From Macrostomum lignano (Eukaryota), in assembly GCA_002269645.1 (NCBI GenBank), contig NIVC01004104.1, forward strand, positions 1 to 35,921: a DNA stretch of 35,921 nt, given 5' to 3'. The position numbers and the translations under genes are program-made. This document shows, in pieces, positions 3,341-35,033 of this stretch. The notes beneath the pieces were generated by a model that saw only the letters and a program-made list of their open reading frames with translations, was not told the DNA's origin and ran no database searches. Positions within the stretch are counted from its first letter, which is position 1. Every line of letters begins with the position of its first letter.

Positions 3341-3342
3341 AC

Positions 3343-6300: not shown

Positions 6301-7270
6301 CGTTATGACCCTGTCTAACAGTGTGATGACCCTGTCTAACAGTGTGATGACCCTGTCTAACAGTGTGATGACCCTGTCTAACAGTGTGATGACCCTGTCT
6401 AACAGTGTGATGACCCTGTCTAACAGTGTGATGACCCTGTCTAACAGTGTGATGACCCTGTCTAACAGTGTCATGACCCTGTCTAACAGTCGTGATGACC
6501 CTGTCTAACAGTGTGATGACCCTGTCTAACAGTCGTGATGACCATGTTTAACAGTGTGATGACCCTGTCTAACAGTGTGATGACCCTGTCTAACAGTGTG
6601 ATGACCCTGTCTAACAGTGTGATGACCCTGTCTAACAGTGTGATGACCCTGTCTAACAGTGTGATGACCCTGTCTAACAGTGTGATGACCCTGTCTAACA
6701 GTCGTGATGACCCTGTCTAACAGTGTGATGACCCTGTCTAACAGTCGTGATGACCCTGTCTAACAGTCGTGATGACCCTGTCTAACAGTCGTGATGACCC
6801 TGTCTAACAGTGTGATGACCCTGTCTAACAGTCGTGATGACCCTGTCTAACAGTGTGATGACCCTGTCTAACAGTGTGATGACCATGTTTAACAGTGTGA
6901 TGACCCTGTCTAACAGCCGTTTAAACAGCAGTTTAATCAGCTAGGGGGGTTCCAATCCAAGAACTGTCGACAGTCCTTGTCCAACTCCGCAGGCGCATCT
7001 CCGTGGACCCGCAAGGATGCTTTCTGGCCGGGCCGCCTGGAAGGCCGGGTCCGCCGTTTCCTAGAAAGCGGACTGGACGGCGCCTCCGCCTACGGGCCGC
7101 AGCTGATGTTCCAGGCCACCCAGCCCGCGCGGGGCGGGCGCAGCCACCCCTACCTGCCCAAAGAGAGCTGGCCGGTGGTCGGGGGTCACGTGACCTACGG
7201 CTCCATCGACCCGACGCTGGCGCACGAGATCACGGGGCCTCGGCGGCTGCAGCAGAAACTGGCGCACTAG
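3343..7270 (+). CDS. EFCAB12: EF-hand calcium-binding domain protein 12-like. Exons 3343-4593, 5018-5353, 5898-6290, 6974(or 6993)-7270
   Basis: EF-hand pair (DLFTSIDKDKDWLLTRDEF; LDQDNNNQLDYREL) plus motifs I recognise from EFCAB12 (VDAYR...RVFLHPAD; AFWPGRL...VRRFL). GT donors at 4594, 5354, 6291 and AG acceptors at 5017, 5897, 6973 join in phase 0. Start codon uncertain. Confidence 0.72.
4612..4918. repeat. 20-21 bp minisatellite (catggRatacccctgttagg), EFCAB12 intron 1
   Basis: About 15 visible tandem copies. Confidence 0.95.
5630..5830. repeat. ~26-bp degenerate minisatellite (aagctcacttctcaccctccatcatc), EFCAB12 intron 2
   Basis: Visible tandem copies. Confidence 0.85.
6304..6917. repeat. 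21-22 bp minisatellite (tgatgaccctgtctaacagtg), EFCAB12 intron 3
   Basis: About 29 copies; source of the MTLSNSV repeat ORFs. Confidence 0.96.
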
Positions 7271-7476
7271 ACTGACTGGAGACTCCAGAAAATTTTGTGC
7301 TGCTCAGCCATCATGCTGCTGCCAATCTCGCTTTCACTTAATTTGCATGTTTCACTCAAGTGTTTTCATCGAATTTTCGGATGATCTGCTTTGATTCCGT
7401 GCATGCCTTCCCATTGTACACATGCTCTAATATATTGCAACAATCAGCTTTAATCTGTAAGTGGCCGCTCAGACTT

Positions 7477-7482
7477 AATAAA
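7477..7482 (+). terminator. Candidate polyadenylation signal of EFCAB12
   Basis: AATAAA about 200 nt after the stop at 7270. Confidence 0.4.
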
Positions 7483-7507
7483 GTCATTACCTACGAAGCA
7501 AAACTGT

Positions 7508-8130
7508 GAATGAGCAGGATGGGGCATGAGCAGGATGGGGAATGAGCAGGATGGGGAATGAGCAGGATGGGGAATGAGCAGGATGGGGAATAAGCAGGAT
7601 GGGGAATGAGCAGGCTGGGGAATGAGCAGTGGGATAGGCCGGGGGATGAGCAGGGAATGAGTAGGGGGATGAGTAGGGGAATGAGCATGGGAAGGAGCAG
7701 GGGAATGAGCAGGGGAATTATCAGGGGAATGAGCATGGGAAGGAGCAGGGGAATGAGCAGGGCAAATATCAGGGGAATGAGCAGGGCAATGAGCAGGGGA
7801 ATGAGCAGGGGAATGATCAGGGGAATGAGCAGAGAAATGAGCAGGGTGAATAGCAGGGGAATGAACAGGGGAATGATCAGGGGAATGAGCAGGGGAATGA
7901 GCAGGGGAATGAGCAGGGCAAATATCAGGGGAATGAGCAGGGGAATGAGCAGGGGAATGAGCAGGGCAAATATCAGGGCAATGAGCAGGGGAATGAGCAG
8001 GGGAATGATCAGGGGAATGATCAGGGGAATGAGCAGAGAAATGTGCAGGGTGAATAGCAGGGGAATGAACAGGGGAATGATCAGGGGAATGAGCAGAGAA
8101 ATGAGCAAGGTGAATAGCAGGGTGACAAGA
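7508..8130. repeat. 12-14 bp purine-rich minisatellite (gagcaggggaat)
   Basis: Visible; source of the MSRG/IPLL repeat ORFs. Confidence 0.93.
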
Positions 8131-8419
8131 AGGGTTATGAACATGAAGTGCTGGAGTTGTTATGCCCATGGATGAATAATATAACTGGATCGCCAGAAGC
8201 TCGATTTTTTGGTCCTAGCCATAGACAAGCAGCAGCATCACAAGAAGCTCAGAATGCCGTACTTTCACACATGTTCTGTAAATTGCCCGTGATCAGTGCT
8301 TCGTAAAATTGGCCCTGCAGCTAAATGACAACTGAAAATAGACTTTTTTGCCTTTTGTGATAAAAGTTCTATGAACAAATTGTATTGTTATTCATTGTAT
8401 ATATACATATACGTAAGAG

Positions 8420-9970
8420 TATTGGTTTTGACAATTAATATGAGAAGATGGACAATCAAAATGAAAACAGCCGTAGATCTGCATGCAGAAGCTCAGCGCA
8501 GCTTTGCAGCAGCTGCGGCTTAGGCCATAGACTTTTTTGACGATCGAAATGAGAATTGGTCAATCAAAATGGCAACGCGCAGTTAGTTTAGCGAGGCAGC
8601 ACATTTAAGCATTAGCCAGCCATCTTTCTCAGCCATCTCTCTAGTTTGCTGGTAATAGCACCACATGTGAGTCCAGAGGACCGACGTCGGCTCATCGAGG
8701 CAATAGATCGAGGCACACCGGTCAAGGACGCAGCAATAATCCTTCAGCTATCAAGTTCAACTGCTCATCGCATCGTGAGGCTGTACAGGAATGAGGGAAG
8801 GATGAACGGTATGCCTCGTGGAGGCCGAAAAAAAGCAAGGTGCAAGGTGGATGAGGAGATTCGTGAATTTCTGGAAGCAGAGGTGAACCGCAACCCCTTC
8901 CTCACCCTGAGCGAGATGGCACAGCGGGTCAACAACCATTTCTTCGACAAACTGGACATCTCGTACAGAAGTGTGGACAGAATTCTACAGGGATTGATGT
9001 ACACAGTTAAGCTGGCCACCAAGGGCACGGATGTGCGCTCGAGAACGAACAGCCAGGAGAACATTGAGGCTCGGTGAGAGTACGCATAGTTCGTGCTGAA
9101 CTTGGACCCTGCAGTACGATTGGTATTTCTCCATGAAACGGGCTTCAATTTGTGGACCAGACGATCGCAGGGTCGCAGCCTGAAGAGGTGAGGCGAAGGG
9201 TCACAACGCAGCGCGGACCAAATGTGATTGTTTGCATGGCGATAGCCGATGAGTTTGGCCTCGTGCACTCGTCGGTGTTCCGAGGAGGCCAGACGAACGC
9301 CAGATTTCAGATCTTCATCGACGAACTGAACTGTGGCTTCGTGGCTTGTCGTGATGGACGGTCCGCATTTCCATCGAGCAGCGCGCATTCCGCAACATCT
9401 GCAGCACGCTGTGTCCATCCGCATTCTTCTGGGATATTCACCTTTTCTGAACCCTTCGGAATTCGCCAACAGTTGCCTCAAGGCCAAGATCAAAAGCAGA
9501 CTGGCGCAGCCTGACATCGTTGAGGAAGAGGCAGTTGCCCCAGAAGGCATGAACCAGGAAGAGTGGCGTTACATGCTGCTGGAGAGAGTGGCGCGTGAGT
9601 CACTGCCTGAAGCCGTGACTCCGGACAAGGCAGCTGCGTAGGAATTGCGCTGCTTCCGTCATCTTGGACGCTGCCTTGCTGGGCAGGAGTTCTGAACCTA
9701 TGCTGTTGGACTGCTGTGTTTCCATCTTTTTTCTGACTGTGTTGCCATTTCTGTTGTTAATTTCTTGCTTCTATTGTTAAATTTTCATTTAAATAAACGT
9801 TCACACTGCTCCCGTTGCCATTTTGATTGACCAATTCTCATTTCGATCGTCAAAAAAGTCTATGGCCTAAGCCGCAGCTGCTGCGAAGCTGAGCTGAGCT
9901 GCTGCATGCAGATCTACGGCTGTTTTCATTTTGATTGTCCATCTTCTCATATTGATTGTCAAAACGAATA
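8420..9970 (+). mobile_element. IS630-Tc1-mariner DNA transposon with 158-bp TIRs, degenerate transposase
   Basis: TIRs 8420-8577 and 9813-9970 are near-perfect reverse complements with TA at both outer ends. HTH ORF 8646-9077; catalytic pieces FLHETG (first D mutated to H), VMDG and YSPFLNPSE are broken by stops and frameshifts. Confidence 0.9.
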
Positions 9971-10087
9971 TTATAATGACAGGCACCATTTTTTATTGTT
10001 TAAATCAGAAAATACTTTTCGACCATAGACAATTTATTTTCATATGTTTCTAAACATATCGGCACACCTAATTACATATATTCCCAG

Positions 10088-13000
10088 GCTCTACTGGTCC
10101 GGTGCTTGTGTTCGAATCCATCATTAACAAATTTTGCAAGGGACTGCTCGGCTGGGATTATCTATCATTCAGACTGTGGATTGGAATCTGGATATTTGTC
10201 ATATTGCTGCTGTTTGTGGCATTCGACTTGAGCGCCCTGGTTAAGTGAGTCGCTGGCACTTTAAGTCAGATTGCGTCACATGATCCAGTCAGATTGCGTC
10301 ACATGATCCAGTCAGATTGCGTCACATGATCCAGTCAGGTTGTGTCAGACAATCCAGTCAGGTTGTGTCAGACAATCCAGTCAGGTTGTGTCAGACAATC
10401 CAGTCAGGTTGTGTCAGACAATCCAGTCAGGTTGTGTCAGACAATCCAGTCACGTTGTGTCAGACAATCCAGTCAGGTTGTGTCAGACAATCCAGTCAGA
10501 TTGTGTCAGACAATCCAGTCAGGTTGTGTCAGACAATCCAGTCAGGTTGTGTCAGACAATCCAGTCAGATTGTGTCAGACAGTCTAGTCAGATATTGTGT
10601 CAGACAGTCCAGTCAGATTGTGTCAGACAGTCCAGTCAGATTGTGTCAGACAGTGCAGTCAGATTGTGTCAGACAGTGCAGTCAGATATTGTGTCAGACA
10701 GTGCAGTCAGATATTGTGTCAGACAATCCAGTCAGGTTGTGTCAGACAATCCAGTTAGATTGTGTCAGACAGTCCAGTCAGGTTGTGTCAGACAATCCAG
10801 TCAGGTTGTGTCAGACAATCCAGTCAGGTTGTGTCAGACAATCCAGTCAGATTGTGTCAGACAGTCTAGTCAGATATTGTGTCGGACAGTCCAGTCAGAT
10901 ATTGTGTCAGACAGTCCAGTCAGATATTGTGTCAGACAATCCAGTCAGATTGTGTCAGACAATCCAGTCAGGTTGTGTCAGACAATCCAGTCAGGTTGTG
11001 TCAGACAGTCCAGTCAGATTGTGTTAGACAATCCAGTCAGATATTGTGTCAGACAATCCAGTCAGGTTGTGTCAGACAGTCCAGTAAGATTGTGTCAGAC
11101 AGTCCAGTCAGATATTGTGTCAGACAGTCCAGTCAGATATTGTGTCAGACAGTCCAGTCAGATTGTGTCAGACAATGGAGCAGGCCCTATTCTAATCCTC
11201 AGGTACATCACCCGTTTCACGGAGGAGTCCTTCGCCAGCCTGATAGCTCTAATCTTCATCATCGAGGCCTTCAAGAAGCTGAGCAACATTCTGAAAGCCT
11301 ACCCAGTGAATTCCGATTGGCATCCCACTTACACGCCGAGCCTGACTTGCACCTGCGAGCTGAAGCCCGGATTCAACAGGTCGCAGCCGCTATCGCAGGG
11401 TCAGCACCTGCGCATTCCCAGCTACTACGACTCGGACGGGCTCTACTACGTGAACCACTCTGCCATCCCCTACTATGACTGGGGCTGGTACGAGAACAAG
11501 AAGCTGTGCAGCTCGCATGATGGCCAGTGGGTTGGCAGCGGCTGCAATCAATTCGCTGTGCCCGACGTATTCTTCTTCTCCTGCCTGCTCAGCATTGGCA
11601 TTTTTGTGCTCAGCTACGGACTCAAGCTAATGAGAAACTCGCCATTCTTTCCTAATCGAGTTCGAGCGCTTATTAGCGATTTCACCGTCATGCTGGCCAT
11701 TGTCGCCATGACTGTCCTCGACCTGCTTGTCGGCTTGCAGACGCCGAAGCTGCACGTGCCTGAGACCTTCTCGCCAACGCTGGGCTACGAGACTTGGGGC
11801 TGGATTGTGCCAGGAACCAGAATCCCTTGTACTCCATCCCACTGGCACTGCTACCCGCCCTGCTGGCCACCATCCTGATTTTCATGGACCAGCAGATCAC
11901 GGCTGTCATCGTCAACCGCAAGGAGAACAAGCTGAAGAAGGGGCTCGGCTATCACCTGGACCTGCTCATTATGGCCCTGCTGATTGGTATCAACTCCATA
12001 TTGGGCATTCCCTGGTTTGTGGCCGCCACCGTGCTGTCAATCAATCATGCAATAGCGCTGAAGATCGAGAGCGAGACAAGCGCGCCCGGCGAGAGACCCA
12101 AGTTTCTGGGCTGCCGGTGAGTCAACTGTCAGACTAATGGCTCACCTGTCAGACTGATGCCTCACCTGTTAGACTGATGCCTCACCTGTTAGACTAATGC
12201 CTCACCTGTTAGACTAGTTAATGCCTCACCTGTTGGACTAGTGAATGCCCCACCTGTTGGACTAGTTAATGCCTCATCTGTTAGACTAGTCGATGCCTCA
12301 CCTGTTGGACTAGTTAATGCCTCACCTGTTAGACTAGTCGATGCCTCACCTGTTAGACTATTTAATACCTCACCTGTTAGACTATTTAATACCTCACCTG
12401 TTAGACTACTGGCTCACCTGTTAGACTAAAATATTGTATGATTGCAATGAGACCCGTTGATAGACGTGCTCAATACGAACTCACTGTGATTTATTGCTCC
12501 GCAGCGAGAACCGAGTCACCGGCTTCCTGATCTTCTTGCTCATCGGCCTGTCGGGTTCCTGACGCCGGTGCTGAAGCACATTCCCATGCCTGTGCTGTAC
12601 GGAGTGTTCCTGTTCATGGGCATCTCCAGCCTGAGGGGTGTGCAGCTGGTGCAGCGTGTGGGCCTGATGTTCATGCCGCAGAAGTACCAGCCCGACTACA
12701 TCTTCCTCAGGTGAGACTTGGCTGCATTATTCATCAAAGATTATCTCCAAATATTATACCGGACTATCCCTCAGTCTTTATCCCAGATTATCCCTACTAT
12801 TTATCCCAGATTATCCCCACTCTTTATCCCAGATGTGCAGTTCTCATCCTCAGATTATCCCCTTATCCCGCAGGCACGTGAGGATCGCCCAGGTGCACAA
12901 GTTCACCATCATCCAGGTGGCCTGTCTGGCGATGCTGTGGGCTGTGAAGGCGATCTCCCAGATCTCCATCCTGTTCCCAATCATGGTGCTGGCAATGTGC

Positions 13001-13333
13001 TTTGTTCGCTGGGCCCTGAACTACATGTTCACCAGACACGAGCTGAAGTGGCTGGACGATATCATGCCGCCCATAACTCTCTGCCAGTCTTGCAAGCCCG
13101 GCTCAGCCAGTGAGTCCAACAATTCCGCCGTTGTGGAACTGCAGATGCAGTCCTCGTCTTTCGACAACGAACAGGCCAAAGTTCATCCGCCTTCCTACAG
13201 CGGCTTGAAGAAGCCCATTGGAGTAACATTCAATGTGTCTGACGAGATTGCCCAGGTTGGCGGAAAGCGCGCCGACTCAGAAGGCAAAGGTGGAATCAGT
13301 ACACGACTGCCTAGGCGGGAGGACGAGAAGTGA
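10088..13333 (+). CDS. SLC4-family bicarbonate transporter/anion exchanger, membrane domain only. Exons 10088-10244, 11203-12116, 12505-12710, 12874-13333; 1-nt frameshifts near 11810 and 12553
   Basis: Family motifs [87 protein letters not shown]. Canonical GT-AG junctions in compatible phases. No 5' exons found in the window. Confidence 0.9.
10262..11175. repeat. 23-25 bp minisatellite (tccagtcaggttgtgtcagacaa), SLC4 intron
   Basis: Roughly 39 copies between the donor at 10245 and the acceptor at 11202. Confidence 0.96.
12125..12428. repeat. 20-24 bp minisatellite (gcctcacctgttagacta), SLC4 intron
   Basis: Visible tandem copies right after the donor at 12117. Confidence 0.92.
12740..12870. 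repeat. Degenerate ttatccc repeat, SLC4 last intron
   Basis: Repeated ttatccc/cagattatccc motifs. Confidence 0.65.
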
Positions 13334-13385
13334 GTTTACCCAGAACTTCACAAGCGTAAAGTTACTCTGCTTGTGAAGCGTTCCC

Positions 13386-14066
13386 AGATCAGTTTGAGCA
13401 GTTCTCTCAGATCAGTTTGAGCAGTTCTCTCAGATCAGTTTGAGCAGTTCTCTCAGATCAGTTTGAGCAGTTCTCTCAGATCAGTTTGAGCAGTTCTCTC
13501 AGATCAGTTTGAGCAGTTCTCTCAGATCAGTTTGAGCAGTTCTCTCAGATCAGTTTGAGCAGTTCTCTCAGATCAGTTTGAGCAGTTCTCTCAGATCAGT
13601 TTGAGCAGTTCTCTCAGATCAGTTTGAGCAGTTCTCTCAGATCAGTTTGAGCAGTTCTCTCAGATCAGTTTGAGCAGTTTTCTCAGATCAGTTTGAGCAG
13701 TTCTCTCAGATCAGTTTGAGCAGTTCTCTCAGATCAGTTTGAGCAGTTCTCTCAGATCAGTTTGAGCAGTTCTCTCAGATCAGTTTGAGCAGTTCTCTCA
13801 GATCAGTTTGAGCAGTTCTCTCAGATCAGTTTGAGCAGTTCTCTCAGATCAGTTTGAGCAGTTCTCTCAGATCAGTTTGAGCAGTTCTCTCAGATCAGTT
13901 TGAGCAGTTCTCTCAGATCAGTTTGAGCAGTTCTCTCAGATCAGTTTGAGCAGTTCTCTCAGATCAGTTTGAGCAGTTCTTTCAGATCAGTTTGAGCAGT
14001 TCTCTCAGATCAGTTTGAGCAGTTCTCTCAGATCAGTTTGAGCAGTTCTCTCAGATAGTTTGAGCA
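13386..14066. repeat. 23-bp minisatellite (cagatcagtttgagcagttctct)
   Basis: About 29 nearly identical copies starting about 50 nt after the SLC4 stop. Confidence 0.97.
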
Positions 14067-14965
14067 GGTCTCAGACAATACAATATCTGTTATGCCAAAC
14101 TCTCCCCCAGAAACGCGGTTCCAGAGTCGGATACTCTGCTATCGCCGGGCACTCTGCAAATTCTCGTCCAACCGCCGTCAGGCAGATCTTCTCCGGAGCA
14201 GCAGAAGCGCTCGAACAGTTGATTAGAATCACCAAAGAAATGAGATGAGTAACAAAATATGAATTGGAAGATTCCCAATTAACGCGTCTTCCGGATTTGA
14301 AGTGAAACTATTTGTTAAAATTGTCGATAATTAATATTCAACAGTTGAACTGTATGTTAGTTTTTTTCGAATGTCTAAACAAAATGCAAAGTTGTGTACT
14401 TTTAATGCCTGTCCAGCAGTAGCCAGCAGTATACTTGATTTTATTTATTTCAATTATGCAAATATTTGTCAATATCAGTTTTTTTATTTCGCTTGTGTGT
14501 GCGCGCGGGTGTGCAATTGTCTACAAGTTGGTTTGTTAGCTTTCATTGATTCAATGAACTTTTATGCGCAGTGTTTTTACTCGCGTATTTTGTCCAATTT
14601 TTAGGAGCTTAATAAGTAATAACAATTAGATCTTAAATGTGCACATCGCTCTACTTATCCGAGTCCAGTTCAGTAGTATGCTTAGCGCTTTTTTCCTTCT
14701 ACGCGTTTTTGTCTATTTTTGCGCCGCAAAATATCACAATATGGCATTATTTCGATATTGAAAATTTTTTCTCTGCCTGAGTGCAAATTTTTCTCTTTCT
14801 CATTGGCAAGAACTTTTTTCTTCTCGTTAAAGCAGCTTCGTTTTGAAGGCTGTAGCTGACAAACGAAGCATTATTTTGCTATTCTCAATTTTTAGACGCT
14901 ACTGGTTCTATATTTTTGTAAATATTTGCCTTTTTGCAATGAAACCAACTATTCGGCCTTTGTAG

Positions 14966-16596: not shown

Positions 16597-16810
16597 TTAA
16601 AAGTCAAGAATAAGTGCCCAGCGGGCACAAAGGTCATGGTACAATATATTACACCTTTTTGCATTCAATTTCAACCAAAGTCGCATTCAATTTCAGCAAG
16701 CTGGCATTCAAAATCGGCAATCTAAATTTAGCCAACCAAATCTTCATTCGGGTAGTGTAGCTCGCTTGGCTAGTAAAAGGAAAATGAATCCGAAAATCAA
16801 CATTGTGTGA

Positions 16811-16852
16811 GTAACGACGCGTTTCGCACTCCTAGATGCATCTTCAGGTTTA
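16811..16852 (-). ncRNA. Minimal type I hammerhead ribozyme (Penelope-associated)
   Basis: Minus strand reads UAAAC-CUGAAGA-UGCAUCUAGGAGUGC-GAAAC-GC-GUC-GUUAC: catalytic core, short stem II, palindromic ACGCGU stem III, GUC cleavage triplet, weak stem I. Confidence 0.72.
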
Positions 16853-17130
16853 TTTTTTCAACAACGAAATTAAACAGGTTTGCGAATAAATATGTGGAGT
16901 TGGTTATAGGTAAACAAGAAAAATTAGAAAAATTATTGAAGTGTCCAATCGGCGTTTGCTGATTGGTTGTAAACACCCACCCCAAGTCCACCCCCCTCTC
17001 TGCACTGCACCCCTCCGCCGTGAGGCTTATATCACCTAGCTTTTACTCAGCCTGCCACACCTTTCTCGCGCTGCATGAAATCTTTTTTATCGTACGGAGT
17101 GGCGTGAGTGCTGCCTAGGCTGCAACTGCA

Positions 17131-18204
17131 ATGGCCGAGATTTCAATTGACCAAATGACTGCAAGGCAGCTTAGAGACCGTCTGCGCCAACTGGGACTGC
17201 CCAGTGGCGGTCGCAAGCGAGAGTTGCAAGTCAGATTGGAACAAGCCAGTTTCTCGAATCAAGCCAAGCGACGTGGACGGCCAACAGCCACTCACTCGAG
17301 CGAAATCGACCGAGTCAGCACCAGCAGCAGCGACGACGATGAAGAAGCGACCCTGGACGAGGCTGGCGCCCCGCAGGGCACCGACGATCTGGACAAGAGG
17401 ATCGCCCGTCAGGAGAAGCTGCTTCGGCTGAGGACTCTTCAATGCCAGACTGCTGAGATCGAGGCTGAGCTGGAGAACAAGCCTTGCCAACAGAGCCGTA
17501 AGTTGCGGAGCCCCTTGCCGATTGACCGGTCCCCTGCTGCCTATGAGCCGGAGCTGGGACTGCCAGACCTGGGCCCTCAAGGCCTCTACAGCACTTCTGC
17601 CAGGCCGTCGGGACCGTCAAAGCCCCTTCTGGTAAAGGACTTTATCAACCGTGATGGCGAGGAGCCTGCCTCTGACGAGAAGTCCAGAGTCCGGACTGAG
17701 CAGATCTCGGCGGGTCAGTGGGTAGCAGGCAGCAACCGAATCCTGCTGAAACTCTTCGACGAAGGTTTCTTGGTCACCGTTAAGGATGGCGCGGTGGATC
17801 TTGAACAGCTGAAGGCCTACGTTCGCTACTGTGTGCAGTTCGGCGAGTTTATGCACCAGGGTTTCAGTCAGGCCGCCCTCAACTGTTACGATGAAGACTT
17901 CAGGATCCTGCAACATCAGTCGAGCGGCAGCTGGGAGCGGGAGTCGCTGCAGCTGCTATCCAAGCACATTCTGGCACCAAAGTCAAATCAGGGCGGCAAC
18001 GCGATCTCCCAGCGCACCAACTTCAAGCCCAGTAGGCCAAAGCAGCAGCCGTCCGGCTTCGTCGGCCCGATCGATCCTGAGGGGCGGGAGCTGTGCGTGA
18101 AGTTCAACCGCAACGGCTGCCTACGGCGCGACTGCAAGTTCAGGCACGTCTGCTCCGCCTGCTACGAGGCGCACCCGCGCCAGTTCTGCACTTCAAAAAA
18201 CTAG
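17131..18204 (+). CDS. Ngaro ORF1 (gag-like) with N-terminal SAP domain and C-terminal Cys/His zinc finger
   Basis: MTARQLRDRLRQLGLPSGGRKRELQVRL (SAP pattern); CVKFNRNGC..CKFRHVCSAC...HPRQFC. Confidence 0.85.
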   Translation: MAEISIDQMTARQLRDRLRQLGLPSGGRKRELQVRLEQASFSNQAKRRGRPTATHSSEIDRVSTSSSDDDEEATLDEAGAPQGTDDLDKRIARQEKLLRLRTLQCQTAEIEAELENKPCQQSRKLRSPLPIDRSPAAYEPELGLPDLGPQGLYSTSARPSGPSKPLLVKDFINRDGEEPASDEKSRVRTEQISAGQWVAGSNRILLKLFDEGFLVTVKDGAVDLEQLKAYVRYCVQFGEFMHQGFSQAALNCYDEDFRILQHQSSGSWERESLQLLSKHILAPKSNQGGNAISQRTNFKPSRPKQQPSGFVGPIDPEGRELCVKFNRNGCLRRDCKFRHVCSACYEAHPRQFCTSKN

Positions 18205-20666
18205 ATCGCGGCCGGGCGGGGGGCTCAACTGGCAGCGCAGCTGCCCCGGCCGAAGCCAAAGTCGAACCCCCGCTGCCCCCCGGCTGGCCCTGTCCCAAGC
18301 CCCTCGAGTCCGTTGCTTTCTCATCCGACCTCGCCACAGCCGCCTGGGAAGCTGAGCTGGCTGACGATCCTGACCGCGAATTCCTGCTGAATGGCATCCG
18401 CAACGGTTTCCAACTCACCTGCCCTGACCCGTCAGAAAGAGCCTCAACTATGTCAGAAATCCAGAACTACCTATCAGTCAACAGTTACCGGCAGCTGGTC
18501 GAGCAGCAGGTGCGAGAGGAAATCCTTAATGGCCGCTACGTTCAAGTAAGTGACAAACCGGAGGTCATCAGCGCCCTTGGCGCCATTCCGAAGGGCAACA
18601 ACGAAGGACTCATCCACGACTGCTCTAACCCTCCGGGTCTCTCCCTAAACAGCCAATTTTCCTCCGACTACAGAATCAAGTTCGAGACTGTCAGCCACTT
18701 CACCGCCAAGCTGCAGCCCGGTTGGTTCATGGCCAAAGTCGACCTCGCCAATGCCTACCGGAGTGTCGGCATCAGCCCGCACGATTTTCGGCTCACCGGC
18801 TTGAAGTGGAAATTCAGCGACCAGTGCAGCGATTCGTACATCTGCGACACGCGGCTCCCCTTTGGCGCTGCTGCCTCCGTGGAAGTTTTCCACCGCCTGA
18901 GCCAGGCTGTCAAGCGCATGATGCAGAGACGGGGCTTCAACGATATCGGAAGTTATCTCGATGACTTCGCCATAGCAGCCTCCAGCAAGGACGACTGCCA
19001 GCTCGCTCTCGACACCCTGCTCAATCTGCTGCGGAAGCTTGGCTTCTCCATCAACTGGAGCAAGGTGGTGGCGCCGTGCACCAGACTAGTCTACCTGGGC
19101 GTCCTCATCGACACCGTCAGCGGCCTGCTGGAGCTTCCGAAGGACAAGCTCGACGCCACCAAGTCTCAGCTGCAGTCCGCGCTCTCTCGCAAGCGCATCA
19201 CCAAGCGCCAACTCCAATCGCTCTGTGGCCCCATCAACTGGGTCTGCCAGGTGGTCCGCATCGGGAGGTGCTTCCTGAGACCACTCCTGCTCGAACTCAG
19301 CGACCTGAAGCAGCAGCGGCACAAACTGCGCGTGCACAATGATCTCCGCGAGATCCTTAGCTGGTGGGACGCCTGCCTGGCCGCCTCCCTCAGCTGCAAA
19401 ATCTGGCGTTCTAACGGGCCCAGCTGGGCCATCGAGTCCGACGCGTCCAACTGGGGCGGCTGCGGCATCATCCGCGGCCCAGACATCACCAGCTGGCTCA
19501 TCATGGACTGGCACCGCGACTCAACCGAGATCGAGCCGCTGCACATCAACTTCAAGGAAAGTCTCGCGCCAGTGCTTACGGCCCTGCATTTCCAGCAGCA
19601 GCTGCAACCGGGCAGCCAGCTTGTGATCTACTCTGACAGCACCGCCGCAGTCGGCGCCATCAACAAGGGCTCGTCGCCAAATCGGGTCGTCAACTCGGCT
19701 CTGCAACAGCTGATGCTCCTCGCTGCGCACCGCGACCTCTCCGTCCAGGCCTTCCACGTCCCTGGGACATTCCAGATCTTCGCTGATAGTGGCAGCCGAG
19801 CCGATGACATCAGCGAGCTGACAAACTTCCTGCTCCGGCTCTTTGGCTCTGTTCACGTTGACCTTAGCAACCTTAGAGAGCACACCCTCTCGCCAGCCAC
19901 CTGCGAATTTCTCGCCCTACAGATCGCCCGCCTCAAGTCCCGAGCGCGAACTTCAGCAAGCGCTACCGCGAGCTCTGCCACCTGGCCTTCGCTGAGACTA
20001 CCGCGCGCTCTTACCGCTGCCAGATCGACTCCTGGAAGCGGTTCTGCAAGCAGATGCGCATCGACAGCACCAGACCGCCTCTGCAGCAGGTCGCGCACTA
20101 CATCATCGCGCTGTCCGACCGCCTCTCCTCGCATGCCAGCGTCGGTGCGTACATTAACGCCGCAGACCTGCACTGCAAGCTCAAGACCGGCCGCGGCCTT
20201 CCTCGCCACCCCCGCATCGACCTGCTCCTCCGCGGTGTCCAGCACAAACTCGCCAAGCCACCGGCGCGCAAGGCGCCCATCACTCCGGGTGACTTCCTCA
20301 AACTGCGAGGAACCCTGCGCCTGCAGCAGCCTCAAGATGCAGCCTTCTGGGCGGCGGTCCTGGTCGGATTCTGGGGCCTCCTGCGCCGCGCCAATCTGTG
20401 CTGCTCGAAACCGTTCCCACCAGCCGGCGAGGCGGTCACCTGCGGCGACCTGCACGTATCACCGGATCTGGCCATCCTGCACATTCGGCGCTCCAAGACG
20501 AACCAGTTCCGCCAGCGAGTGCACCGCGTTGTCCTGCCGCGCCTCCGGCACGCGGCGCAGCACCCGCTCTGCCCGGTGGCAGCGCTGCTTCACCACCTGC
20601 GCATCAACCAGCCCGACCGCGCCGCTGCTGCCCACCTCTTCGCTTACCGAAGCAGCGGCGGCCTGA
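18093..20666 (+). CDS. Ngaro ORF2 reverse transcriptase-RNase H (-1 frame to gag; tail overlaps YR)
   Basis: LIHDCS, KVDLANAY, LPFGAAAS, YLDDF, YLGVLID; RNase H ESDAS/FKES/YSDS/FADSGSR. Sequence after about 19900 looks like alternate-frame read-through. Confidence 0.92.
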   Translation: MREVQPQRLPTARLQVQARLLRLLRGAPAPVLHFKKLDRGRAGGSTGSAAAPAEAKVEPPLPPGWPCPKPLESVAFSSDLATAAWEAELADDPDREFLLNGIRNGFQLTCPDPSERASTMSEIQNYLSVNSYRQLVEQQVREEILNGRYVQVSDKPEVISALGAIPKGNNEGLIHDCSNPPGLSLNSQFSSDYRIKFETVSHFTAKLQPGWFMAKVDLANAYRSVGISPHDFRLTGLKWKFSDQCSDSYICDTRLPFGAAASVEVFHRLSQAVKRMMQRRGFNDIGSYLDDFAIAASSKDDCQLALDTLLNLLRKLGFSINWSKVVAPCTRLVYLGVLIDTVSGLLELPKDKLDATKSQLQSALSRKRITKRQLQSLCGPINWVCQVVRIGRCFLRPLLLELSDLKQQRHKLRVHNDLREILSWWDACLAASLSCKIWRSNGPSWAIESDASNWGGCGIIRGPDITSWLIMDWHRDSTEIEPLHINFKESLAPVLTALHFQQQLQPGSQLVIYSDSTAAVGAINKGSSPNRVVNSALQQLMLLAAHRDLSVQAFHVPGTFQIFADSGSRADDISELTNFLLRLFGSVHVDLSNLREHTLSPATCEFLALQIARLKSRARTSASATASSATWPSLRLPRALTAARSTPGSGSASRCASTAPDRLCSRSRTTSSRCPTASPRMPASVRTLTPQTCTASSRPAAAFLATPASTCSSAVSSTNSPSHRRARRPSLRVTSSNCEEPCACSSLKMQPSGRRSWSDSGASCAAPICAARNRSHQPARRSPAATCTYHRIWPSCTFGAPRRTSSASECTALSCRASGTRRSTRSARWQRCFTTCASTSPTAPLLPTSSLTEAAAA

Positions 20667-20920
20667 CGCCTCTGACCGGCACCCGGTTCTGTCGCCTGTT
20701 TCGGCACGTCGTCCACCGTGCCGGCCTGGCAGACCGGTCTCTGTCCCCTCACAGCCTTCGACGCGGCGGCGCCTCGCTGGCGTTCCGCGCCGGTGTGCCG
20801 CTGCCGGTCGTCAAGGCCCTGGGCGACTGGCGGAGCTCGGCGGTTGAGGTGTACCTGGGGCTGGAGAAGGGCTTCGATCTCCAGCTGGCGGCTGTTCGCA
20901 AACTGTCTCAATGCCTATAA
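19877..20920 (+). CDS. Ngaro ORF3 tyrosine recombinase
   Basis: Frame open from 19877 (AFAETTARSYRCQIDSWKRFC); catalytic R (LLRRAN), K (SKTNQ), HSLRRGG, LGDWRS..VEVY. First in-frame ATG only at 20054. Confidence 0.92.
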   Translation, partial: RAHPLASHLRISRPTDRPPQVPSANFSKRYRELCHLAFAETTARSYRCQIDSWKRFCKQMRIDSTRPPLQQVAHYIIALSDRLSSHASVGAYINAADLHCKLKTGRGLPRHPRIDLLLRGVQHKLAKPPARKAPITPGDFLKLRGTLRLQQPQDAAFWAAVLVGFWGLLRRANLCCSKPFPPAGEAVTCGDLHVSPDLAILHIRRSKTNQFRQRVHRVVLPRLRHAAQHPLCPVAALLHHLRINQPDRAAAAHLFAYRSSGGLTPLTGTRFCRLFRHVVHRAGLADRSLSPHSLRRGGASLAFRAGVPLPVVKALGDWRSSAVEVYLGLEKGFDLQLAAVRKLSQCL

Positions 20921-22199
20921 TTTTTCGTTTGCCTGCTCTGGGTTGAAGCTGGTGTGCTGTCTGCTTTCTTTTTCCTCTCGCTTGGACTCAAATGCTCAGA
21001 TTTTTTTTCTTCCCAACTCGTGCACTTTTCTTATTTAGTATTTTATCTTTTTTTTGCAATGATGACTGTTGTTTTATCGATTCAGTGCTGTTTTAATGAC
21101 TGTTTATTTTATTTGCTTGCAAGCGTGACCAGCATTCTGCGTGCCCCCCCGTTTTTCTTCACTATCTTCCCATCATTTTTCGGATTTTGGATCGTCGTAT
21201 CCGCTCGCACTGTATTCGTTACTCGCAAACACTCGCGTCCGTCTTCCCTTCCCTTGGGGTGTGGTGTTTAGTGTCCAATCGGCGTTTGCTGATTGGTTGT
21301 AAACACCCACCCCAAGTCCACCCCCCTCTCTGCACTGCACCCCTCCGCCGTGAGGCTTATATCACCTAGCTTTTACTCAGCCTGCCACACCTTTCTCGCG
21401 CTGCATGAATTTTTTTTGCTTTTTTTGCTTTTTTATATTTTCTGTACTGCACAAATAAACTTGCTGTACAGAGGATCGTCGAATCCACTCGCACTGTACT
21501 CGTTACTCGCAAACACTCGCGTCCGTCTTCCCTTCCCTTGGGGTGTGGTGTTTACAAATCGTTATTGGAGAACACATGAGTTAGTCCGTACGGCAGAGTG
21601 AAGTCCGGGGGCGGAAAGAATGTACACCCAGTACTCTCTCTCATCAAAAGACACGGAGTAGGTGACCCGCGCCACTATGTTGGAGTTGTGTGTTTAGGCT
21701 GGGTGACTGGGCTTTAATGTGCATGGCCTCAAGAATTCTAAGTTTGAAGTCCGACTGACGTTGGTCAATGATTTTAAAGTGCTCGTTTGGGTTGCAGTTA
21801 GAGCAGCTACTGCAATGCACTAAGTGATCTGGTGTGGTGTGTAGGTGTCTTTTGGTTTTCCCCACGTAGGAGACGCTCTGGTCAACAGAGCAGTTGAATT
21901 GATAGACGACACCAGCACGCAGAGCACGGGGCAGAGCACGGTTTAAGCATGCTCGCATTCCATTTCAGCGAACCACATTCAATTTCGGCAATCTGCATTC
22001 ATTTTAATTTTGTCTCAAACTTGTCTGCTCGTCTATGGGTAAACTTTATTGACGCGTGCAGATTTTGCATTCAATTTCAGCAGTTTGCATTCAAATTCAG
22101 CAAAATATTATTAACTAAACGTAAAACGAAACAATTGTCGTCCAAAACATGTACAGTAGGGAACATAGCAGGGAACAAAAGCAGAAAATCGAAGTCACG

Positions 22200-23333
22200 T
22201 CAATTGTGGACCTTCAGTCTCCATTGATGTGCATCCTGGCCAGGCATCTCGGTACAAAGCTGAAGCAGTGATTGTACCACTGGAGGCACTTGAGTGACGC
22301 TGTCGTTCACTGTTAGATCGGCGAAGCGCATCGACTCGTCCCTTCGATATTCAGCCAGTGTACGCCCAGCGCGAGCTTCGTTGGATGGATTGATGAAAAC
22401 TTCGCGGCTGTCACTGAGTTCACTTTTAATGGCCGCCTTCCATGCGGAGATGGCGCTCTCAACGGGTGTTAAAAATGGGCTGTATCTAGAGAGTCGCCGG
22501 AACTCAGCCAGTCCCACAACCTCTTGTAATTCAGCGTCATTATGGCTGCTGACATTATCAAAAATAAGGTATGCAAGTTGGTGCGGCCAGACCATTTGAG
22601 CGTTACCCATCACAATTTGGAGAAATTCAGCGAATTTCTCCTTTGTCATACCGCGAGTGTACGCTTGATAGTGGATCAGACCAATCTGAGGCGAAACAGC
22701 GACGCAGATGGTGATGCGAGTGCTCTTTTGGCCGGAAACGGTTCTGTAGGCCCGTTGACCGCGGAGCGACCTTCCCTGTTGACGTCGCATCCAGGTGTCG
22801 AATCTGAATTCATCGATGAACACCTTGGGAGCATTGATAACATCGACCGAGCACCACCAGTTACAATAAGCTTCACGCTCTGCTAGGACTGCCGGGGAAT
22901 TGCGTTCTGCGGGCACGTCTCGAACAAGTTTGATAGTGTACGCATGGCCCTCCAGTTGTCGGCTTAGTGTAGTCATCGAGACAGCTGGTTTGTCCGGAAA
23001 TCTTATGCGCAGTCGATCATTGATTCCTTTTAGCGTCAGAACAGGATTGTTTTCCAGTAGTTCAGTACAATGCTGCAGCATCTCCTCATCGAACTTCGAG
23101 TACCACCTTCCGCCCTTAGGTTGTTTATATCGGCGGCCTGATCGAACGATTGAATAGGCGGTGGCTCTTTTGATGTTCATGAGCTCTGCAAGTTGTAAAT
23201 AGTCCTGACCTGTCTCATGGGCATCGATAAGGCGGGCTCTATCTCCGTCAGAAACTCGTGCGTATGGTCCTCGACCTTCTTCTGATTCAATTTCTTCGTC
23301 ACCTTGTTCTTCAATGATCTCATCGTCACTCAT
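22200..23333 (-). CDS. IS630-Tc1 transposase (DD32E spacing), near intact
   Basis: ATG at 23333; HTH region; VFIDE, IFDN, YSPFLTPVE. A frameshift near 22290 moves the likely natural C-terminus (KCLQWYNHCFSFVPRCL) into another frame. Confidence 0.88.
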   Translation of the reverse strand: MSDDEIIEEQGDEEIESEEGRGPYARVSDGDRARLIDAHETGQDYLQLAELMNIKRATAYSIVRSGRRYKQPKGGRWYSKFDEEMLQHCTELLENNPVLTLKGINDRLRIRFPDKPAVSMTTLSRQLEGHAYTIKLVRDVPAERNSPAVLAEREAYCNWWCSVDVINAPKVFIDEFRFDTWMRRQQGRSLRGQRAYRTVSGQKSTRITICVAVSPQIGLIHYQAYTRGMTKEKFAEFLQIVMGNAQMVWPHQLAYLIFDNVSSHNDAELQEVVGLAEFRRLSRYSPFLTPVESAISAWKAAIKSELSDSREVFINPSNEARAGRTLAEYRRDESMRFADLTVNDSVTQVPPVVQSLLQLCTEMPGQDAHQWRLKVHN

Positions 23334-23741
23334 ATCTATGCTCGATATCTCCACTTGCAGTCGAAAAAAACATAAAGCTGGGGGTGAAGTGAAATGAAAG
23401 GATCGACAAAGCCTCTTTGCATGTAAACTGTACATGAAATTGATCATTCGTCTGTGGTTGAAATCGAATGTGTTTTGCTGAATTTGAATGCAGACTGCTG
23501 AAATTGAATGCAAAATCTGCACGCGTCAATAAAGTTTACCCATAGACGAGCAGACAAGTTTGAGACAAAATTAAAATGAATGCAGATTGCCGAAATTGAA
23601 TGTGGTTCGCTGAAATGGAATGCGAGCATGCTTAAATTGAATGAAGATTTGGTTGGCTAAATTTAGATTGCCGATTTTGAATGCCAGCTTGCTGAAATTG
23701 AATGCGACTTTGGTTGAAATTGAATGCAAAAAGGTGTAATA

Positions 23742-24760
23742 TAGTTAGGCTGTATTGAGCAGAAATGAGCGAATCAGCCTCGGCGCTTCGCGAGGCTTCG
23801 CGCCTCGTCTGTTTCGCTCATTTCTGCCCTCAACAGCCTAACTACATGTATATTAGTATCGTAGCCAATCTAAGCCTGCCAACGCATTCTATGGTCAAAT
23901 TCCATTTGAAGTAAGCTATTGGCTTCATTTCTCGCCCGCTTCTTCTTGACTTGTCTATGGCCTAAGCACTCGAGACCTGTCATATTGGGCCGTATGCAGA
24001 AAGCTTAGTCCAGACTAGCTAGTCTGGACTTGGGTAGTTCAGTCTATAGTCTATGGTCCAGCTACCTTAGTTCTGTCTATAGTAGACCGGTCTAACTTTG
24101 CGTTTCTGCATACCAAATCCAAGTCCAGACTAGCTTTTCAAGACCGGACTACCCTAGACAGAGCTTTCTGCATACGGCCCATTAAGTCATGTTGAAGTCA
24201 TGTTATAGAAAGAAAAATCCATCGTGTTTTTATTCCTTTACTGTTTGTCGAATATGCTGCGTTATTCTTCAATACGCGAAGACGAAATTAGTGGATTGAG
24301 CTCAATTTCATCACGCATCTCGATCCTCGGGACCATGTCGACAGAATTGGTCAATGGACAGGGCTGACGGATGAGCAAGAGAGGCTAATTGATGAGGAAC
24401 TACGCAATCCTACGCCGGAAGATCAGGTTGGAAACCTGTTTCGTGAATTGACCGAAGAAGAAGAAGCTGGCCTAAATCATGTGGAGCAAGAAAGTAAACG
24501 GAAGTCGACGGTTAAGCAAACTGAATTGCATATTCGCAAACTAAAAGAGTTTCTACGCGTGGAGAATTTACCTGATCACATCGAGAATATGCCAGTGAGG
24601 TATCGCAACTCCTATCTACGCCTGTTCTTCGTTCAGTTAAAAACAGCTGATGGAAAGCCTAAATACTGTCAATGGACTATATATCTAATGTTTATCTCAT
24701 GTTAATGTTAATATCTCATGCTAATGCTAATATTAGCTCAAAATATATACATGTTTCTTT
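23742..24760 (+). mobile_element. Crypton-like (tyrosine-recombinase DNA transposon) 5' fragment with terminal hairpin
   Basis: Imperfect palindrome 23742-23843 with a central cctcggcgcttcgcg..ttcgcgcctcg motif. ORF 24292-24705 (FRELTEEE...STVKQTELHIRKLKEFL..IENMP..YLRLFFVQLKTADGKPKY) resembles the N-terminus of Crypton/DUF3504-type proteins; catalytic domain absent. Confidence 0.6.
23987..24180. mobile_element. Tourist/Harbinger-type MITE, 194 bp
   Basis: 19-bp TIR gggccgtatgcagaaagct / agctttctgcatacggccc; 3-bp TSD ATT on both sides. Confidence 0.85.
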
Positions 24761-25565: not shown

Positions 25566-26300
25566 TATAGCTTTTTGCAGCCCATTTGGGCTTACACGCA
25601 TTGAATTTAATCCAAGATACGGTTGCCACTGTAACGGTGCTTTTGTCTATGGTAGCAAGGCTGGCACTGCGGCATTTAATTTGGTCCAACAAGCATCAAT
25701 TTAGTCCAAACGCTCGTGAGCCATTCGGAAAACTCTTACCTTCTCGCAACCATCTGCAATTGTTGAGTACCGCTGGAAGTTCAGCGTCTCTACCAGCAAT
25801 TTTCAGTTGCTTTTCCAGAGTCGAAAGCTGGAACTGTTTCTTTAACTTCTGCTGCATTTTCTGCAACGTCAACAAAGGGTTCGTCTCAACTGCATCGAGT
25901 AGAAATTGGAACTGAGGCTCCAGCAACTTGCCTTGGCGATTGCCACCCTTTCGCGGGCGATCTCTGCTTGCAGTGATTTCAACGCGCTGATGGACGTTGT
26001 AAAGCACCTTTTCTGTTACATTCAGCAACCTTGCAATGTCATTTGGGCGTTCATCTCTGTCGAGTGCTTCGATCACATTCGTTCGACAGTCCAGCATATG
26101 GTCCACAATTCTGGGGGGCTGATCTGCTTCTCCACAGCAGTTGCAAGTGAAGCTATATGGACCAAATTGATGCTTGTTGGACCAAATTAAATGCCGCTGT
26201 GCCAGCCTTGCTACCATAGACAAAAGCTCCGTTACAGTGGCAAACGTATTTTGGATTAAATTCAATGCGCGTAGGCCCAAATGGGCTGAAAAAAGCTATA
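25566..26300 (-). mobile_element. Internally deleted IS630-Tc1 element (735 bp) with ~143-bp TIRs
   Basis: TIRs 25566-25708 and 26158-26300 with TA ends; the HTH remnant (IARLLNV..NPLLTLQKMQQKL) lacks the DDE domain. Confidence 0.88.
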
Positions 26301-29244: not shown

Positions 29245-29359
29245 AGAAAAATCGGTTGAGACTGGGGCTCGGTTTCGCCTCCCTCCCTCGCCTGTTTATT
29301 TAATTGTGGCTGGCAAGAGGCGCTGATTGGCTGGGCGGTCATTTGCTGGACTATCGAGA

Positions 29360-30145
29360 CTCAGAGTGTATCTGGCGCCGTATCTACACACTGAGAGTGT
29401 ATCTGGCGCCGTATCTATACACTGAGAGTGTATCTGGCGCCGTATCTAAACACTGAGAGTGTATCTGGCGCCGTATTTACACACTGAGAGTGTATCTGGC
29501 GCCGTATCTACACACTGAGAGTGTATCTGGCGCCATATCTACACACTGAGAGTGTATCTGGCGCCGTATCTACACACTGAGAGTGTATCTGGCGCCGTAT
29601 CTACACACTGAGAGTGTATCTGGCGCCATATCTACACACTGAGAGTGTATCTGGGCGCCGTATCTACACACTGAGAGTGTATCTGGCGCCATACCTACAC
29701 GCTGAGAGTGTATCTGGCGCCGTATCTACACACTGAGAGTGTATCTGGCGCCGTATCTATACACTGAGAGTGTATCTGGCGCCGTATCTACACGCTGAGA
29801 GTGTATCTGGCGCCGTATCTACACACTAAGAGTGTATCTGGCGCCGTATCTACACACTGAGAGTGTATCTGGCGCCGTATCTACACACTGAGAGTGTATC
29901 TGGCGCCGTATCTATACACTGAGAGTGTATCTGGCGCCGTATCTACACGCTGAGAGTGTATCTGGCGCCGTATCTACACACTGAGAGTGTATCTGGCGCC
30001 GTATCTACACACTGAGAGTGTATCTGGCGCCGTATCTACACGCTGAGAGTGTATCTGGCGCCGTATCTACACACTGAGAGTGTATCTGGCGCCGTATCTA
30101 CACACTGAGAGTGTATCTGGCGCCGTATCTACACCTTGAGAGTGT
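29360..30145. repeat. 31-bp minisatellite (actgagagtgtatctggcgccgtatctacac)
   Basis: About 25 copies, upstream of the lectin ATG. Confidence 0.96.
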
Positions 30146-30547
30146 ATCTGGCGCTGTATCATCTGGCGCCCTATCATCTGGCGCCACAGTTTCAGTTAAA
30201 TGTGTGGGGTCACAATTTCAGTTCATTCTGGCGCTACAATTTCAGTGAACTCTGGCGTCAAGTACATGCTTTGCCCAGGGCAGGTTACCTTTACAACATA
30301 CCTGGCCCTAAATTTGTTTATATAAAAGTTGCAAACTTGTCAACTCAGAAGAAGAAAGGTCCGGGGGTTTTGCGCAGAGCACTCGCTAACAGAAACTTTA
30401 TCTATTGATAAGGCATCAACTCGAAGTCACTACAAGTGCCATTTTGACCCCGAAAATTGTTCTGAATGGTAAGTTCTGCGTTTATAAATTTGGGCCAAGA
30501 CTCCCGCGAAGTGTTGTGCGTTTGTTGGGCTTCCAAGAGTTGAGTGA

Positions 30548-31703
30548 CTGGACTGTATCAAGTGCTGAGTGACTGTATGAAGTGCTGAGTGACTGTATCA
30601 AGTGCTGAGTGACTGTATCAAGTGCTGAGTGACTGTATCGAGTGTTGAGTGACTGTATCAAGTGCTGAGTGACTGTATCAAGTGCTGAGTGACTGTATCA
30701 AGTGCTGAGTGACTGTATCAAGTGCTGAGTGACTGTATCGAGTGTTGAGGGACTGTATGAAGTGCTGAGTGACTGTATCGAGTGCTGAGTGACTGTATGA
30801 AGTGCTGAGTGACTGTATCGAGTGCTGAGTGACTGTATCAAGTGCTGAGTGACTGTATGAAGTGCTGAGTGACTGTATCAAGTGCTGAGTGACTGTATCA
30901 AGTGCTGAGTGACTGTATCAGGTGCTGAGTGACTGTATCAAAAGCTGAGTGACTGTATCAAGTGCTGAGTGACTGTATCAAGTGCTGAGTGGCTGTATCA
31001 AGTGCTGAGTGACTGTATCAAGTGCTGAGTGACTGTATCAAATGCTGAGTGACTGTATCGAGTGCTGAGTGACTGTATCAAATGCTGAGTGACTGTATCA
31101 AATGCTGAGTGACTGTATCAAATGCTGAGTGACTGTATCAAATGCTGAGTGACTGTATCAGGTGCTGAGTGACTGTATCAAGTGCTGAGTGACTGTATCA
31201 AATGCTGAGTGACTGTATCAAATGCTGAGTGACTGTATCGAGTGCTGAGTGACTGTATCAAATGCTGAGTGACTGTATCAAATGCTGAGTGACTGTATCA
31301 AATGCTGAGTGACTGTATCAAATGCTGAGTGACTGTATCAGGTGCTGAGTGACTGTATCAAGTGCTGAGTGACTGTATCAAAAGCTGAGTGACTGTATCA
31401 AGTGCTGAGTGACTGTATCAAGTGCTGAGTGACTGTATCAAGTGCTGAGTGACTGTATCAAATGCTGAGTGACTGTATCAAATGCTGAGTGACTGTATCG
31501 AGTGCTGAGTGACTGTATCAAGTGCTGAGTGACTGTATGAATTGCTGAGTGACTGTATCAAATGCTGAGTGACTGTATCAAATGCTGAGTGACTGTATCG
31601 AGTGCTGAGTGACTGTATCAAGTGCTGAGTGACTGTATGAATTGCTGAGTGACTGTATCAAGTGCTGAGTGACTGTATGAATTGCTGAGTGACTGTATCA
31701 AGT
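30548..31703. repeat. 20-bp minisatellite (gactgtatcaagtgctgagt), left block
   Basis: More than 50 copies. Confidence 0.97.
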
Positions 31704-34700: not shown

Positions 34701-35033
34701 GCATCAAAGACAATGCGTGTCTTTGTCCGCTCGCACCACTGCAAAGTGCGGCAGGTACCACTCACCGCCACTGGCACTGTGCTGTCGACTTCTTCTGTGC
34801 AACCTTTAACTGGATGCACCTCCTGGTACGCCTTCGCCAGGTCTGGATCTTTCCGCAAACGCTTTTCAGTGCATTTCAACCGATGCAGGGCTGCGTTCCT
34901 GCTACTAGGCAATTCTGTCGGATCCGTCTTCCAAGGATTCGTCACTTGGTATCGTCCAACTTCAAACTCAAGATTCGCTTCAACCATCTGTACCGCCTGG
35001 CGTTCTTCTTCTGACAGGAACGCTCGGGGAGAT
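31704..35033 (-). mobile_element. BEL/Pao LTR retrotransposon fragment (RT, RNase H/A17, integrase, DUF5641-type tail, PPT, partial 3' LTR), decayed
   Basis: RIVFDASA..LNDAIFAGPKLQN, KWISNS, KALGVNW, VDAFQDAYGAVVY, LRLELMAA, RRGLPKIMHSDNGGNF, RGRWPLGRV..GQDGRVRVA. PPT AAGAAGGGGGTAA (31910-31898) is followed by a TGT LTR start at 31897. Many frameshifts and deletions. Confidence 0.92.

Follow-up and report, generated by a model that had tools for sequence, protein, structure and literature searches.

The slippery heptamer A_AAA_AAC is used in mouse mammary tumour virus (MMTV), human T-lymphotropic virus (HTLV), bovine leukaemia virus (BLV), equine infectious anaemia virus (EIAV) and astroviruses, and stop-codon readthrough between gag and pol operates at the UAG of murine leukaemia virus (MLV), UGA-C being a further leaky context. 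PMC5009743, in the first 300,000 of its 449,034 characters, places A_AAA_AAC among the shiftiest eukaryotic heptamers, reports pol in the -1 frame in 28 of 51 animal long terminal repeat (LTR) retroelements, and does not mention DIRS, Ngaro or tyrosine recombinase. Elements of the Ngaro superfamily in the order DIRS (DrNgaro1, fungal and Xenopus Ngaro) have overlapping open reading frames (ORFs) in the layout A1-gag-RT/RH-YR-B1-A2-B2, where RT is reverse transcriptase, RH ribonuclease H and YR tyrosine recombinase; the passages that define this layout in PMC3783388, PMC9210276 and PMC7192593 give no shift site, readthrough context or splice site. Poulter and Butler (2015), in the words quoted in PMC13003380, held that YR is probably translated via programmed ribosomal frameshifts at the RT/RH-YR overlap. 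Here we describe contig NIVC01004104.1 of Macrostomum lignano (35,921 nucleotides, forward strand; the window), which holds a full-length Ngaro retrotransposon of the same layout. A -1 programmed frameshift at A_AAA_AAC (18195-201) very probably makes its Gag-Pol fusion, as far as comparison of sequences can tell. The original prediction, made from the letters of the window, had called such a mechanism not known to be established for Ngaro or DIRS. This holds for the site, since our literature search found no slippery site, readthrough context or splice site for either (these may exist in Poulter and Butler 2015, Goodwin and Poulter 2004, supplements or Repbase notes), but the conjecture had already been made in the text quoted by PMC13003380.

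The gag frame of the element ends with the codons TCA (18193), AAA, AAC and TAG (18202-04). The pol frame, -1 relative to gag, extends open across 18081-20666; the first ATG within it is at 18450. The heptamer before the TAG and the lack of a pol ATG until about 18450 had both been noted from the sequence, and all coordinates proved right. We propose that translation would end at TAG for most ribosomes, yielding the 357-aa Gag, while a minority would slip one base back by tandem tRNA-Lys/tRNA-Asn slippage, reading TSKN-LDRG into RT/RNase H to give a predicted fusion of about 1180 aa. A long GC stem (18210-24/18275-89), 8 nt downstream, would act as the stimulator, perhaps aided by the adjacent stop codon. 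The frames, the heptamer, its phase-specific conservation described below and the position of the first ATG are observed; the slippage, its efficiency and the acting RNA structure are inferred. The heptamer is unremarkable by itself, because AAAAAAC occurs ten times in the window (6 on the + and 4 on the - strand); the non-random part is its conservation in relatives.

We collected 91 loci, 80 from metagenome contigs (the best 80 of 235 matches), 10 from genome contigs that are presumably eukaryotic DNA within bacterial bins, and the window; a search of viral contigs for relatives yielded none. Nine of the loci (L081-L089) are full Ngaro elements inside bacterial metagenome-assembled genomes of the genome collection, presumably eukaryotic host DNA binned with symbionts. 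The gag-pol junction could be classified in 79 of the 91, the 12 others lacking a recognisable zinc knuckle (8) or a pol N-terminus (4). Pol lies in the -1 frame in 51 of these loci, in the same frame as gag in 23 and in the +1 frame in 5. Clustering at 80% pol identity gave 66 families: 40 with pol in -1, 21 in the same frame (including an open gag-pol fusion, L074) and 5 in +1. The families are related to one another, and the p values below treat them as independent.

Within the last 12 gag codons, an in-phase A_AAA_AAC was present in 29/40 of the -1 families, as against 0/20 single-stop families, 0/5 +1 families and 1/1610 background gag windows. With the window left out the count is 28/39 (Fisher p=3e-8 versus 0/20), and any canonical X_XXY_YYZ is found in 33/40. 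The original prediction had proposed aligning other family copies to check heptamer conservation; across related families the heptamer is conserved, and the predicted Gag-Pol fusion by -1 frameshifting draws strong support from the comparison. The constraint acts on nucleotides and not on residues, since Lys-Asn is written A_AAA_AAC in 29/33 cases at the gag end and in 1/28 in the gag body. Among the 29 heptamer families the stop follows the heptamer directly in 11 and within 21 nt in all, and 28 have pol open from the heptamer onward. The distance from the heptamer to a conserved Gly is 191 nt in the window and 83-140 nt in the other 28, because the window's family has a longer, GC-rich linker.

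A run of six A residues could also lead the polymerase to add one A, so that the frame would be changed in the RNA. The site is such a run, and in L074 gag and pol share one frame via an A8 run. Against this, of 32 A6 runs located within 60 nt of the gag end, 31 have the X_XXY codon phase needed for tRNA slippage, a phase that fits ribosomal and not polymerase slippage, and variants without an A6 run (G_GGA_AAC, G_GGA_AAA, C_CCA_AAA, G_GAA_AAC) substitute for it in relatives. Transcriptional slippage is therefore very improbable.

Translation of pol from a start of its own was considered next to ribosomal slippage. The conserved motif W..EL..DPD..FLL.GI..GF begins at 18345, upstream of ATG 18450, and in an alignment of 41 proteins the invariant G64, G68 and F69 precede the first pol Met. 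Of 120 homologue alignments, 119 start more than 15 aa upstream of that Met. In P0001, a 77%-identical relative, the equivalent Met is absent while KKL at the shift site is kept. A start at ATG 18450 would remove invariant residues and, judged by these alignments, cannot be the true start of pol. Separate initiation, by leaky scanning, reinitiation or a sub-genomic RNA, would have this ATG or the near-cognate CTG 18273 at its disposal, both being in the pol frame, and in each of the five +1 families a pol-frame ATG lies upstream, in two of them just behind the gag stop. However, a pol-frame ATG before the conserved Trp is absent in 21/29 heptamer families and present in 8/29; together with the loss of the invariant residues and the absence of the Met in P0001, this makes separate initiation highly unlikely.

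To the 3' side of the heptamer, the original prediction had described a 7-nt spacer (18202-18208) and a perfect 8-bp stem as the stimulator. The pairing is there, CGGCCGGG (18209-16) matching CCCGGCCG (18245-52) perfectly. The inner hairpin described with it can pair as well (18231-36/18240-45), but both structures need C18245. Given the GC richness here, the stem exceeds chance expectation only modestly: an 8-bp Watson-Crick stem 4-9 nt after the heptamer arose in 25/1000 dinucleotide shuffles of 59 nt and in 17/500 of 99 nt, and the fold of 18205-18260 has z = -0.22. A longer stem starts 8 nt after the heptamer, has a single mismatch (G.G at 18216/18283), encloses hairpins at 18231-45 and 18248-57, and was reached in 4/500 shuffles. 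It takes over from 18292 on, with a mean pair probability of 0.93 to 18350 and 0.60 at 18400, and the predicted pairing probability of the short stem falls to about 0 once 18289 is included. In the longer context the short stem is 16 kcal/mol worse (-34.9 versus -50.8 kcal/mol).

Sister copies were sought over 17700-18800 in contigs of four runs, of which X4 and X6 cover the site and X1 and X18 do not. Position 18216 reads C in X4 (24.7/24.7 depth) and in X6 (350/350), which would pair with G18283 and give a full 15-pair long stem. In X6 position 18251 reads G (350/350), which is synonymous and disrupts the short stem; X4 lacks this change. Among the differences listed (eight were left out), no change falls in the heptamer in X4 or X6, the divergent X6 contig with six other changes included. 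P0001 has GRPG and PPGRP at the arms of the long stem, as a complete stem would give. Covariation of the short stem in sister copies, another check proposed with the original prediction, thus came out the other way, with the short stem damaged by two changes and the long stem completed. Since the long stem outcompetes the short one in the models and is completed in the sister contigs, the short stem probably does not act as the stimulator, and the long stem is the favoured though unproven candidate.

Several results weigh against this account, either against the frameshift or against the long stem. The canonical heptamer is missing in 7/40 of the -1 families. Two of these are near-canonical (L042, G_GAA_AAC; L056, A_AAA_AAG), and two more, L075 and L080, lie next to readthrough families on the RT tree, perhaps as decayed copies; the other three are L053, L069 and L065. 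The 90 nt downstream of the heptamer in the 29 families that carry it fold no better than shuffles (mean z -0.10, 0/29 below -2; window -1.59), and a stem at p<=0.05 was found in 2/29. This lack of shared folding is the main result against a general textbook cassette. A crude pseudoknot scan gave a hint, with candidates in 13/29 heptamer families versus 3/20 readthrough sites (8 versus 1 at p<=0.07, 15 shuffles each). At the locus itself, the A-P-A residues over the 3' arm of the short stem are also kept in P0001, and C at 18216 also permits, by inspection, a shifted 9-bp short stem (18213-21/18244-52). The upstream ATGs of the +1 families, given above, and the acceptor ahead of pol, given below, belong with these points. 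It is accordingly conceivable, if rather unlikely, that the active stimulator is the short stem, its shifted 9-bp form or a pseudoknot using both 3' arms. Eight perfect GC pairs at a 7-nt spacer, a pairing probability of 0.80 with the RNA cut at 18260 and the residues kept in P0001 favour such a structure, while its energy in the longer context and the sister-copy bases at 18216 and 18251 speak for the long stem. As to the families, a pronounced 3' structure of the classical kind may often be dispensable at -1 sites.

A clade made up of L053, L054, L057, L062, L066 and L069-L071 has pol in -1 without a canonical heptamer. Its members share a conserved C_CCC_CAA two codons ahead of the gag stop. 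Their linker is longer, and they also have ATGs in the pol frame and phase-1 sites that resemble acceptors.

Other relatives appear to reach Gag-Pol by different recoding signals. In the 20 same-frame families with a single stop, the stop context is TGA-C in 10, TAG-G in 5 and other in 5, so that TGA-C accounts for 10/13 TGA stops and TAG-G for 5/7 TAG stops; L003, L007, L008, L012 and L059 are examples with one frame and a single stop. Leaky-stop readthrough of the MLV type is likely in these families, as judged from their stop contexts, and applies to the relatives and not to the window element. Tca2 (PMC2194720) is a reminder that such an in-frame stop needs testing. L074, in which the A8 run lies within a single open frame of 878 codons that spans gag and pol, is either a natural fusion or an assembly error.

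The +1 families (L028, L040, L041, L060, L067) all have CGT_TTT_CGT in the gag phase, 12-51 nt before the stop, and form one group on the RT tree (88 SH-aLRT). TTT-CG occurs 20 times in 21,054 gag codons, the five +1 sites included. A +1 shift at UUU_CGU, with a P-site/A-site motif, is described for influenza PA-X (PMC3498833), and a UUU_CGN site for amalgaviruses (PMC5052127). The five families share UUU_CGU with these systems, with CGU and not UCC as the E-site codon, and represent one clade; our literature search found no UUU_CGU-type +1 site in a retrotransposon. Slippage at UUU_CGU is the likely route to Gag-Pol in them, and reinitiation is possible, given their upstream pol-frame ATGs. 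On the RT tree, obtained by a quick method, unrooted, without a named reference element and with the window's own branch unresolved, -1 and readthrough families are interleaved, and well-supported branches force at least 8-9 mode changes, a count that decayed copies may inflate. Gag-Pol fusion by recoding thus looks general in these elements, with the mode switching along the tree.

The recombinase appears to be expressed in another way. Its ORF has its first in-frame ATG downstream of the conserved N-terminal helix. Relative to pol, the YR frame is -1 in 21 families, +1 in 15 and the same in 4, differences to which indels in decayed copies may contribute. As acceptor we took the pyrimidine-rich AG that ranked best between 20 and 110 nt ahead of the conserved YR helix; 9 further families lack the anchor motif. 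The acceptor so found is in phase 1 in 33/37 families, and no phase exceeded 65% in three control windows. Donor-like sites in the gag body number 84 in phase 1, 36 in phase 0 and 20 in phase 2, a count without a separate control. Because YR lies -1, +1 or 0 to pol, yet the acceptor phase is constant, no single frameshift can, on these alignments, serve the recombinase. In the window the predicted splice pair is 17497/98 to 19922/23; splicing there would join Gag(1-122) to YR, and the recombinase is likely such a fusion, about 454 aa long. At the RT/RH-YR overlap the data thus suggest splicing from gag and not the frameshift conjectured by Poulter and Butler (2015) in the quoted passage. A search for YR homologues gave 33 matches, most from prokaryote-style gene calls, none with a SAP domain on record, and so lent no support to a GagN-YR fusion. 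Over the YR ORF, pol continues without a stop for about 740 nt (19920-20666), as it does in P0001; in most relatives pol stops within a few dozen codons of the acceptor.

The same donor raises the possibility that pol, too, comes from a spliced RNA, 17497/98 to 18339/40, which would yield an in-frame Gag(1-122)-Pol retaining the N-terminal motif and leave the heptamer inherited but unused. Donor and acceptor are both in phase 1, the acceptor score of 12 is on par with that of the YR acceptor, and the gene models P0051, P0100 (coral) and P0004 (Macrostomum) splice gag to pol. However, a phase-1 acceptor scoring >=12 occurs in 9/40 of the -1 families (15/65 overall) at scattered positions, versus 50/395 control windows of 80 nt, whereas the YR acceptor is in phase 1 in 33/37. 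The gene models cut the conserved motif at differing places and drop the zinc knuckle, like gene-finder artefacts, and splicing leaves the phase-locked heptamer unexplained. We therefore regard a spliced pol as improbable, and the -1 frameshift as the very probable explanation of the gag-pol junction. Contigs of X4, possibly an RNA run, cross 18340 with neither a joint nor a loose end at that point; we give this no weight.

Like retroviruses and Ty3-Gypsy elements that shift at A_AAA_AAC, the Ngaro element has pol in -1 and, where gag ends, a heptamer of the same class; a candidate 3' structure would lie 5-9 nt away. It differs in having no protease or DDE integrase domain, and folding energies revealed no 3' structure shared across families. 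The fusion is presumably unprocessed, since these domains are absent. Taken together, we lean towards a scheme in which Metazoan-type Ngaro elements would follow the full retroviral expression plan without protease and integrase: Gag from genomic RNA, Gag-Pol by recoding and the recombinase from spliced RNA as GagN-YR, the recoding mode switching repeatedly between -1 at A_AAA_AAC, a leaky stop and a PA-X-type +1 at UUU_CGU, with -1 sites often perhaps lacking a strong classical 3' structure. Expression of downstream ORFs without an ATG in DIRS-order elements has been a conjecture until now, and the analysis gives exact, testable sites for it, placing the conjectured frameshift between gag and RT, no longer between RT and YR. 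As in retroviruses, selection probably maintains a controlled ratio of Gag to Gag-Pol in YR retrotransposons. The -1, readthrough and +1 signals that replace one another on one RT tree form a natural panel. Ngaro pol and YR proteins would be mis-annotated when called from the first ATG. The frameshift mechanism itself is textbook; the wider pattern of three interchangeable recoding modes and a spliced recombinase is the more interesting part.

The gag-like, RT/RH and YR ORFs lie on one strand in the order expected of Ngaro (Table 1). The zinc-knuckle motif of gag matches the pattern in relatives, and the recombinase translation shows the YR motifs R, HxxR and Y. Across the three ORFs, no Pfam match at E<=0.1 was found for methyltransferase, protease or DDE integrase; a terminal inverted repeat pair of the DIRS1-like type, which would go with a methyltransferase domain, is likewise absent from 16700-21900. 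A search for longer gag relatives gave one match, a garbled Macrostomum lignano gene model with stretches near-identical to the element.

Table 1. Annotated and predicted features of the Ngaro element, in window coordinates
Feature	Positions	Strand	Basis or remark
Repeat A1, split direct repeat, left terminus	16940..17087	+	148 nt; 99% identity to 21270-21417
gag ORF, 357 aa, SAP domain, C-terminal Cys/His zinc knuckle, end TSKN-stop	17131..18204	+	PF02037 E=4.6e-8
Predicted phase-1 splice donor GTAAGT, after gag codon 122	17498..17503	+	sequence inference
Slippery heptamer A_AAA_AAC, gag phase, gag TAG directly after	18195..18201	+	in phase in 29/40 -1-frame families
pol ORF (RT + RNase H), -1 frame	18201..20666	+	PF00078 E=5e-15; frame open from 18081
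8-bp stem of the original prediction, competing disfavoured fold	18209..18252	+	P=0.80 with RNA cut at 18260, ~0 when longer; -34.9 kcal/mol constrained
Predicted stimulator, 15-position stem 18210-24/18275-89 (14 pairs here)	18210..18289	+	mean pair probability 0.93, -50.8 kcal/mol
Acceptor-like AG, end 18339, phase 1 to pol	18325..18340	+	basis of a spliced pol
Tyrosine recombinase ORF	19877..20920	+	PF00589 E=1.9e-5, below curated cut-off
Predicted recombinase splice acceptor, AG end 19922, phase 1 to YR frame	19905..19923	+	same phase in 33/37 families
Repeat B1	21189..21270	+	82 nt; 96% identity to B2
Repeat A2	21270..21417	+	copy of A1
Repeat B2, right terminus	21473..21554	+	copy of B1

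Compared with contigs of all four runs, this copy is shorter by 3 bases, in frame, near 18602-18606, where the N-terminal region of RT has a nearly invariant Arg; the copy may therefore be slightly decayed. A perfect inverted-repeat pair of 105 nt (16645-16749 and 23639-23743) encloses both the Ngaro element and a Tc1/mariner-type transposon (21942-23636; 164-nt inverted repeats, DDE_3 ORF 22200-23525, minus strand), and the two are nested insertions inside the shared pair. Two more elements bounded by inverted repeats lie at 8420-9970 and 25566-26300, with arms of 158 nt and 143 nt. The regions 4614-14072 and 29359-35914 contain many minisatellite arrays with units of 12-31 nt, among which are coding pieces of an EF-hand protein (ORF 3262-4629) and a bicarbonate transporter (ORF 10307-11878).

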